From an uncultured Desulfobacterales bacterium (GTDB taxonomy: Bacteria > Desulfobacterota > Desulfobacteria > Desulfobacterales > Desulfococcaceae), in assembly GCA_964505535.1 (NCBI GenBank), contig CAZDIU010000002.1:3303-67302 (forward strand): a DNA stretch of 64,000 nucleotides, read 5' to 3'. The notes beneath the pieces were generated by a model. The model did no database searches, had not been told where the DNA came from, and saw only the letters and a list, made by a program, of their open reading frames with translations. Shown piece by piece: positions 5,426 through 5,943 of the stretch (positions are counted from its first letter, which is position 1; each line of letters opens with the position of its first letter). Position numbers and translations under genes: made by a program.

Positions 5426-5718
5426 CACCGACAGAGTTGCTCTCTGAAATTGACCGCATGTATCTGGAGTCAAAAAAGGCGAGACGTTCCCGGCTCAGTA
5501 TGGAATGGGGCATATGGAGCGGGGAGATGAACAGGAATATCCGAAAACGGATTGCGGAAGATGATCCGGAAAAGGAAAAACTGAAGCTGGTGTTTGCGTA
5601 CTGGCAGAATGCGTCCATTCTTCTGGAACTGCATTTCAAATCCAGACTTCTGAAAAGGAAGCAGAAAAAGGAATGCAGGGAGATTATGGAGCATCTGAAA
5701 AAGCAGATATTGACCTAA
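5410..5718 (+). CDS. hypothetical protein
   Basis: 102-aa basic/acidic ORF. Its TAA stop (5716-5718) lies inside the R'' box of the following attC-like site. Confidence 0.5.
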   Translation: MGEGMTPTELLSEIDRMYLESKKARRSRLSMEWGIWSGEMNRNIRKRIAEDDPEKEKLKLVFAYWQNASILLELHFKSRLLKRKQKKECREIMEHLKKQILT

Positions 5719-5775
5719 CCCATCGTTCAAGCGGACGGCGGGAAAAGCCCGCCGCCGCTTAACTCAATGTTGCAC
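5713..5775 (+). mobile_element. integron attC (59-be)-like recombination site A
   Basis: R'' ACCTAAC, 5 nt, L'' GTTCAAGCGG, hairpin CGGCGGG/CCCGCCG, L' CCGCTTAAC, 5 nt, R' GTTGCAC. There is one unpaired C in L''. Confidence 0.7.
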
Positions 5776-5858
5776 GAAAGCCCTTCGGGCAGGAGGGGGG
5801 AGGTACTTTTCCCTATAGCACAAATCATGCCAAACCCGGCATCCGGAGCAGGGCTTCC

Positions 5859-5943
5859 GTACAACCATGCGTTGAAGCGGACTGCCGGGCAGGGCGGGAG
5901 GAGTCTTTTTTTTTCCGATCTGCCGCTTAACTCAGTGTTATGT
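5859..5943 (+). mobile_element. integron attC-like site A2 (longer variable centre)
   Basis: R'' GTACAAC, 5 nt, L'' GTTGAAGCGG, 42-nt centre, L' CCGCTTAAC, 5 nt, R' GTTATGT. Confidence 0.6.

Follow-up and report, generated by a model that had tools for sequence, protein, structure and literature searches.

A temperate phage of a Desulfobacterales host carries a gene-less integron cassette and appears to trade cassettes with that host

Why would a phage carry two integron-type recombination sites with no gene between them? The question is raised by a stretch of 64,000 nucleotides (nt) from an uncultured Desulfobacterales bacterium (the window), in which two attC-like sites, A (5713–5775) and A2 (5859–5943), lie between a small open reading frame (ORF) encoding 102 amino acids (orf102) and the genes for the terminase. 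The window lies within a contig of 75,921 bp, C2, the ends of which overlap by 25 bp, so that it closes into a circle. Its genes include those for a large terminase, a major capsid protein, a portal and a tape measure protein of 3190 amino acids, and C2 is a temperate phage. A and A2 were confirmed as real attC-type sites. We consider it highly probable that they are integron attC sites, present on a temperate phage without an integron integrase (IntI) of its own, and that they delimit a single gene-less cassette. More broadly, the phage appears to trade integron cassettes with its host.

In the description given by Nivina et al (2016; PMC5027507), an attC site consists of R boxes with conserved AAC/GTT triplets, L boxes and an unpaired central spacer, with extrahelical bases beside L'' and a variable terminal structure, and it is the folded bottom strand that is recombined. 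All the parts that the original prediction had described for A and A2 could be read back from the sequence, including the TAA stop of orf102 (5716–5718), which falls within R'' of site A. The L boxes pair with one another, GTT(C/G)AAGCGG with CCGCTTAAC, and in both sites the 5-nt spacers are non-complementary (CCATC after R'' and TCAAT before R' in A, CATGC and TCAGT in A2). Only the L'' arm has bulged bases, a pair at a spacing of 7 nt in each site (C5728 with A5735 in A; G5874 with A5881 in A2). Read on the bottom strand, those of A become G and T, and the first of A2 becomes C, not G. The AAC and GTT triplets of the R boxes are present in both sites, with the outer four positions matching RYYYAAC/GTTRRRY loosely. 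Between L'' and L', site A has a 7-bp GC stem with a 5-nt loop, and A2 has a long, poorly paired middle part of 42 nt, which includes a run of nine T. Site A was predicted to fold with −19.1 kcal/mol, giving z scores of −4.2 and −4.8 against shuffled sequences (single strand). This anatomy agrees with the published definition, both A and A2 having the structural features of attC.

Three further sites, B, C and D, are found between 19 and 21 kb, and the proposal that A and A2 belong to the same family as this array was borne out, as the five sites fit one model and each R' pairs best with the next R''. Two covariance models were built in this analysis. R1 derives from 19 training sites (A, B, C, D, one on another contig of the genome and 14 from IMG/VR) and R2 from the 14 IMG/VR sites only, with none from this genome. 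A and A2 were accepted by both. Over the 64 kb, R1 gave exactly five strong matches, all on the plus strand and at 45–75 bits; the next matches, at 11–15 bits, were the same five sites on the minus strand, so that the matches are strongly strand-specific. R2 retrieved the five sites and no others (Table 1). Overall lengths of attC sites range roughly from 57 to 141 bp (those of the present sites are in Table 1). The pattern AAGCGG-N10-40-CCGCTTAAC matched twice in the window and never in 100 shuffles, and genome-wide it gave four forward matches as opposed to none for the reversed control. Across the alignment of the 19 sites 93.2% of the pairing cells were paired, compared with 86.0% on shuffling (none of 500 shuffles reached the observed value) and 25–50% when the partners were slid. 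Of the three AAC/GTT triplet pairs, two were paired in every one of the 19 sites and the third in 18 of them. The terminal structures vary, the loops and stems differing among the sites, with seven both-side changes at the innermost modelled pair. No Rfam family was found in the window at the gathering threshold. A loose regular-expression scan for attC-like sites, which returned 697 mostly false matches, was superseded by the covariance model.

When the five R' boxes were compared with the five R'' boxes, the row maxima of A, A2, B and C all fell on the next downstream site (6, 7, 7 and 7 of 7 positions), with scores of 3, 4, 6, 4 and 4 for the R' of A, A2, B, C and D with their own R''. Since R' pairs best with the next R'', the rule for integron cassettes holds in all four rows. 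The pattern bears on the possibility that the sites are decayed attC relics, in which whole units would come and go by homologous recombination or by replication slippage between the repeated arms, without an integrase. The phage contig does encode no IntI, the middle of A2 is poorly paired and D is degenerate (20 bits with R2), all as might be expected of relics, but agreement with the rule for four successive pairs is not, and nor are the intact bulges and spacers of A, B and C, which are well formed.

The interval between the two sites provides a stronger test of this alternative. It measures 83 nt (5776–5858), or 89 nt if counted from the G|TT crossover, and, as had been predicted, it holds no gene; the small hairpin GCCC-TTCG-GGC described between the sites was located at 5779–5789. 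If its ends are placed at the TT that follows the crossover in A and at the G of the A2 R' box, the unit is 168 nt long and comprises an 89-nt body followed by A2, 85 nt of the total being attC. Its GC content is 0.571, that of the window 0.486. The first 15 nt of the body pair with 5850–5864, extending the R stem to 16 positions of which 14 are paired, and this extended outer stem is kept in all four copies of the body.

Among 401 sampled genomes of the order the body was found in three, which belong to one genus and include the metagenome-assembled genome (MAG) with which the phage contig was binned (G000). The other two, G008 and G009, are different species of the host genus. The cassette copy in G009 (contig C8) is identical to that of the phage at 161 of 172 aligned columns (93.6%), with 97% identity for the body alone, and it sits inside an array of eight same-strand attC matches over 10 kb. 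The similarity starts at the GTT of the preceding R' and stops at the GTT of the cassette's own R', the predicted G|TT crossover points, and the 60-nt flanks of the two copies are unrelated (37/70 and 33/65). A cassette ending exactly at two GTT boxes between unrelated flanks is not what slippage would yield, and the explanation by decayed relics therefore seems to us unlikely. G008 has two copies of the body, with 81% and 78% identity. The first (G008:C301) is around 2 kb from a divergently oriented IntI gene, which is the layout of an integron, and the second is cut off after R''. Indels of 1, 1, 3 and 1 nt between the phage and G009 copies rule out a conserved reading frame. No second copy of either the body or the middle part of A2 was found in the MAG, and a degenerate pattern of the body core had no match in IMG/VR or the JGI metagenomes.

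The original prediction had offered three readings of the interval, an excised-cassette scar, a non-coding cassette or a docking hotspot. The non-coding cassette is the only one of these to be supported, as the 168-nt unit recurs with the same ends in chromosomal arrays. A scar found no support, the interval being a complete cassette in its own right. Judged from its sequence, 5770–5937 is a complete, gene-less and apparently mobile cassette, and not a scar.

The gene-less cassette yielded no promoter, no conserved terminator and no match to a known RNA family. When the four copies of the body were folded to a consensus, both sides had changed in only 1 of the 30 predicted pairs, and there is no case for a structured RNA in the cassette body. 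An Rfam search over 5600–6100 gave only two snoRNA matches, both at chance level. A consensus scan for sigma-70-like promoters found no site in 5300–6300, though the promoters of such cassettes are not identifiable in silico according to a section heading of Blanco et al (2024, NAR; PMC11014356). Our best guess, and one we hold with some confidence, is that the gene-less cassette persists as a passenger through its own proficiency in recombination. A second choice, to which we give distinctly less weight, is that it regulates the downstream packaging genes, as a promoter or otherwise.

The hairpins might instead resemble attC by convergence and be regulatory stem-loops or transcription terminators of the phage at the borders of moron-type inserts. 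The sites are at the 3' ends of genes, there is a terminator-like match within the body at 5781–5800 and a T9 run in A2, and attC sites are themselves said to be weak terminators in Qi et al (2023; PMC9892861). However, in A, B, C and D the stem is not followed by a T tract, and the T run of A2 has no counterpart in the G008 copy. Terminators, moreover, do not feature conserved R boxes, spacers or one-sided bulges, and the same sites fill IntI-linked arrays in the host genus. A terminator origin would seem hardly credible.

The second cluster of attC sites carries genes. The cassette that ends in C has two, RexA (Pfam 1.4e-47, PADLOC 2.1e-51) and RexB (PADLOC 2.9e-11), with a GC content of 0.284 as compared with 0.486 for the window. 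The cassette that follows encodes a protein of 224 amino acids (orf224), a homologue of which adjoins attC in another IMG/VR record, and ends in D, where R' overlaps the stop of the tape-measure gene. With RexAB, a defence-type system is packaged as an integron cassette inside a phage. A pattern scan of viral sequences gave 85 loci, only 20 of them with the full attC layout and the rest resembling chance hairpins, and four of the five IMG/VR records examined had two to four attC sites each. One of 38,976 bp (G408, L053; 100% complete by CheckV) has four attC matches within 2.1 kb (23678–25803), and two more (G406 and G409) have two each. A further IMG/VR contig (L025, 26,094 bp), which is classed as viral, has an attC-like site about 1.2 kb from a stretch with 51% protein identity to the host IntI and, from its sequence, may carry a complete integron.

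Which enzyme, then, would act on these sites? No protein of C2 passes the IntI model TIGR02249, and a complete integron, with intI beside attI, Pc and an array, was not found there. As C2 has no IntI, both attC groups are clusters of attC sites lacking integrase (CALINs), for which a minimum of two sites is the definition used in PMC9892861; A is separated from A2 by 83 nt, the sites B, C and D fall within 2.1 kb, and all five are on the plus strand. The phage does have two tyrosine recombinases that might move the cassettes, an integrase of 405 amino acids and a Xer-like protein of 287 amino acids (45823–46686). Both have the PF00589 catalytic domain, and the best NCBIfam match of the Xer-like protein is NF040815 ('tyrosine recombinase/integron integrase') at 110 bits. 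This is, however, only half of the cut-off of 220, and against the IntI model the Xer-like protein and the integrase gave 33.6 and 40.2 bits respectively, the latter over model positions 245–312, far under the cut-off of 265. BLASTP showed no significant similarity between the Xer-like protein and the host IntI (best E 0.33). The 405-residue integrase has a gap in place of the IntI-specific insertion of the host protein, and has an attP and a tRNA target of its own. It is therefore very improbable that either recombinase moves the cassettes.

An IntI is encoded by the MAG. It aligns to VchIntIA (PDB 2A3V) with an E value of 1.7e-73, the IntI-specific insertion included, and has an N-terminal extension of around 146 amino acids ahead of the aligned part. 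The IntI matches in related genomes are in open frames of 475–507 amino acids, and the extension seems to be a trait of the lineage. Its nearest named relatives, with up to 89% identity, are from MAGs titled Desulfobacterales or Desulfobacteraceae. With R1, 20 further attC sites of the same subtype as those of the phage were found on 17 other contigs of the MAG. Among the 17 genomes of the family IntI is over the cut-off in 7 and R1 has matches in 14, and the four other genomes of the genus have 19, 34, 91 and 101 matches. The absence of R1 matches from three genomes of the family supports the specificity of the model.

On these grounds we infer that the host IntI is the acting enzyme, and that cassettes pass between the host arrays and the phage, with a direction and timing deduced in the same way. 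The bottom strand of each site would fold to give a hairpin that has an unpaired spacer of 5 nt and two bulged bases, and the host IntI would bind these hairpins while the phage DNA is in the cell, either as a prophage or replicating. IntI would then exchange strands between the G and the TT of the R' box, such that cassettes could leave as circles and enter other attC or attI sites. The same process at B, C and D may have supplied the RexAB exclusion cassette and the cassette for the 224-residue protein, and the phage would then transport them.

To see whether the cassettes vary among related phages, Logan contigs of four sequencing runs were compared over 3000–22500. X1 is the probable source sample, and X2 and X3 are wastewater runs from one other study. 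Contigs of X2 and X3 that are 95–99% like the phage join 5752 to 5920, skipping 167 nt and leaving one hybrid attC between orf102 and the terminase genes. Had the interval been fixed phage sequence it should have been conserved in relatives; with contigs from two runs joining across it, it appears variable, although the sides of the joints are short. One X3 contig joins 19254 to 21368, so skipping the RexAB and orf224 cassettes, and in X2, X3 and X4 there is essentially no depth over 19275–21227, with both flanks covered. In X2 one contig has the right half of an attC directly before 21368, and another, from a relative, has orf102 and the left half of A. We take the joints to support, though not to prove, a variation among these phages in which entire cassettes are there or missing at attC sites that stay in place, and related phages in other samples appear to be without the gene-less cassette. 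A further X2 joint, with a shorter side of 26 nt, connects 5771 to 19231, taking the GTT of A straight into the start of a B-like attC. This may represent two abutting attC sites or a repeat effect; it differs from the product that recombination between A and B should give.

Comparison of the runs also bears on whether host cassettes were stitched into the phage contig during assembly through the repeated attC sites. Repeats of this kind break or confuse short-read assemblies, the X1 contigs do break at 5727–5756, 19286–19315 and 20639–20668, and the MAG is in 406 contigs, with many of its attC matches at contig ends. On the other hand, the X1 contigs that bear the cassettes have a depth of 72–75, equal to that of the phage backbone, where other X1 contigs with attC-like matches have 3–8. 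One of them, spanning 5727 to 19315, has the gene-less cassette with A2 on a single contig with the tail and terminase genes in a second assembler's output, possibly from the same sample. The equal depth and this contig argue against a chimeric assembly, as do the X2 relatives that keep the left half of an attC after orf102 and the right half before 21368. We consider such an artefact most improbable.

Several observations weigh against host-mediated cassette exchange and temper our confidence in it. No excised cassette circle was seen. Only the gene-less cassette connects the phage with the host arrays, as RexA and orf224 were not found in 16 other genomes of the family and have no paralogues elsewhere in the MAG. 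The IntI contig is short (6.6 kb) with no attC detected on it, and that the phage belongs with this MAG is itself deduced from binning. The tests of the sites are also less than fully independent. The training set of R1 included A, B, C and D, though not A2, and the training sites of R2 were retrieved with a pattern taken from the L boxes of the window, which leaves the R boxes, spacers and bulges, but not the L boxes, as an independent test. The fold of A2 is no better than that of shuffled sequences (z scores of −0.6 and −1.2), a consequence of the poor pairing in its long middle part, and from the modelled fold A2 may recombine only weakly. On the bottom strand the loops, A-rich when read on the top strand, are T-rich and lack the purine-rich GAA reported for sites of mobile integrons. 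As for the joints, their shorter sides are only 28–37 nt, and repeats or other organisms can give such joints. That at 5752/5920 lies upstream of L', inside the right arm shared by the sites and not at G|TT, as exchange between decayed repeats would predict, and carries the spacer of A2. It is therefore not a simple G|TT excision product of this phage, and fits an independent variant or homologous exchange equally well.

If host IntI does act on the phage, a bolder proposal can be made, in which the phage is an active partner of the host integron and no passive carrier, gaining and shedding cassettes, the gene-less one and RexAB among them, through IntI in natural wastewater populations and then able to bring them to other cells. 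In its most extreme form the block 5938–19286, with the terminase and about ten tail and baseplate genes, would be a giant cassette of 13.3 kb. The block lies between the co-oriented sites A2 and B, and R' of A2 matches R'' of B at 7 of 7 positions across it; ACATAAC is, however, the R'' box at 2 of the 20 attC sites found on other contigs of the MAG, and the chance of the A2–B match is around 0.1. The joint expected on excision of the block was not seen among the Logan contigs. We think this proposal unlikely. Were the giant cassette real, the integrase could swap a structural and host-range module of the phage.

At the first locus the gene-less cassette is inserted at an attC that follows the final gene of a small operon of the phage; attP is about 1.1 kb away, and the terminase genes lie just downstream. 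The positions of all the features are given in Table 1.

Table 1. Positions and supporting evidence for the attC sites, cassettes and associated genes. Positions refer to the window unless a contig is named.
Feature	Position	Strand	Evidence or remark
attC site A, 63 nt	5713–5775	+	sequence, fold, R1 70.5 bits, R2 61.3 bits (E 2.6e-16)
Site A R'', ACCTAAC	5713–5719	+	sequence
Site A L'', GTTCAAGCGG	5725–5734	+	sequence
Site A L', CCGCTTAAC	5755–5763	+	sequence
Site A R', GTTGCAC	5769–5775	+	sequence
attC site A2, 85 nt	5859–5943	+	R1 45 bits (not in training set), R2 43.2 bits
Site A2 R'', GTACAAC	5859–5865	+	sequence
Site A2 L'', GTTGAAGCGG	5871–5880	+	sequence
Site A2 L', CCGCTTAAC	5923–5931	+	sequence
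Site A2 R', GTTATGT	5937–5943	+	sequence
ORF-less integron cassette, 168 nt	5770–5937	+	TT after crossover in A to G of A2 R'
Non-coding cassette body, 89 nt	5770–5858	+	inverted repeat, copies in host genus
attC site B, 62 nt	19231–19292	+	R2 67 bits, R1 match, fold
attC site C, 56 nt	20621–20676	+	R2 48.8 bits, R1 match
attC site D, 60 nt	21315–21374	+	R2 20.1 bits, R1 match
Two-gene RexA/RexB cassette, ending in C	19287–20670	+	Pfam, PADLOC
Cassette with orf224, ending in D	20671–21368	+	phrog_12600
orf102, 102-residue phage ORF	5410–5718	+	weak PHROG match phrog_28244; TAA inside R'' of A
80-residue ORF (phrog_3849) and large terminase, phage backbone	6000–8109	+	directly downstream of A2
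Phage tyrosine integrase, 405 amino acids	3197–4414	−	PF00589, 2.3e-33
attP core	4549–4595	+	47/47 nt identical to 3' part of tRNA-Arg(CCT) in the MAG, G000:C44:3521–3594
Host IntI, 453 amino acids	G000:C300 (L091:1495–2856)	−	368.7 bits, cut-off 265

Contigs of X1, X3 and X4 have loose ends at 4550–4596, as expected of integrated copies. Relatives of the large terminase were found neither in IMG/VR, the JGI metagenome contigs and the INPHARED phages nor in 16 genomes of the host family. The tape-measure gene (21369–30941, minus strand) is very long considering the 76 kb of the phage. A sub-threshold match to the Y RNA-like family YrlA (RF02553) at 1559–1682 on the plus strand (34.6 bits against a gathering threshold of 69, E 6e-5) immediately precedes a Ro60/TROVE gene (1747–3213), and the phage seems to carry a module of Ro60 and Y RNA. 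An inverted partial match to the start of A, at 5964–5974, is at chance level for the region. In an X2 relative 19 other letters replace 192 nt (5240–5431), so that it is without the small ORF 5237–5425, a difference not bounded by attC sites. A palindromic repeat of about 34 nt, AAAAACCGGATTTTTCCGAAAAATCCGGTTTTT in form, is abundant across many contigs of the MAG; it often occurs in pairs and is unrelated to attC, and examples are at C5:35124–35177, C13:3939–4010 and C242:370–487.

Plasmids and transposons are the vehicles usually assumed for integron cassettes. Clusters of attC sites on phages were reported only in 2023, mostly as isolated sites, in the account of Qi et al (Front Microbiol; PMC9892861), who list 17 phage CALINs, from temperate and virulent phages, with no nearby IntI. 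In that report IntI1 recombined five of the six phage attC sites tested, and phages were proposed as vehicles for cassettes. The phage described here resembles them in having attC sites and cassettes with no IntI nearby. It differs from them, as they are described there, in having two clusters in one phage, one with a gene-less cassette and the other with the two-gene RexAB cassette, and in that the binned host carries both an IntI and the same attC subtype, with a cassette 93.6% identical in the array of a related species. If the traffic is live, induction of the prophage and of the integrase would jointly open a transduction route for cassettes.

Gene-less integron cassettes were reportedly also described by Tansirichaiya et al in Sci Rep in 2019. 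Most of the gene-less cassettes of Vibrio were shown to bear sense-strand promoters, according to Blanco et al (PMC11014356). The cassette of the phage is like these, as presented in that paper, in having attC without a gene, in being conserved and in being mobile within arrays, but it is small (168 nt), is found in a phage and has no promoter by the consensus scan.

Sedentary chromosomal integrons, such as the superintegron of Vibrio cholerae, have a lineage-specific type of attC. The host genus resembles them in having one attC subtype, with 19–101 matches per genome, and IntI genes, and the sites of the phage are of this same subtype. Unlike the V. cholerae superintegron, for which VCR sites are named in PMC5027507, the host arrays are spread over many contigs and the IntI has its N-terminal extension. 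For attC sites in general PMC5027507 gives length figures of 57–70 and 133 bp, and for attC-aadA7, from the class 1 mobile integrons, extrahelical bases at G16 and T23. Site A is similar to attC-aadA7, as it is described there, in being of the 57–70 bp length class and in having a bulged G and T 7 nt apart, and the L boxes may also be closely alike in sequence; the loops of the phage sites, by contrast with those of mobile-integron sites, are T-rich on the bottom strand and not GAA. The known mechanism of integrons is left unchanged by these findings, which extend a known kind. Both phage CALINs and gene-less cassettes have been published already, and what is added here is the presence of the same cassette in a phage and in the arrays of its host lineage.

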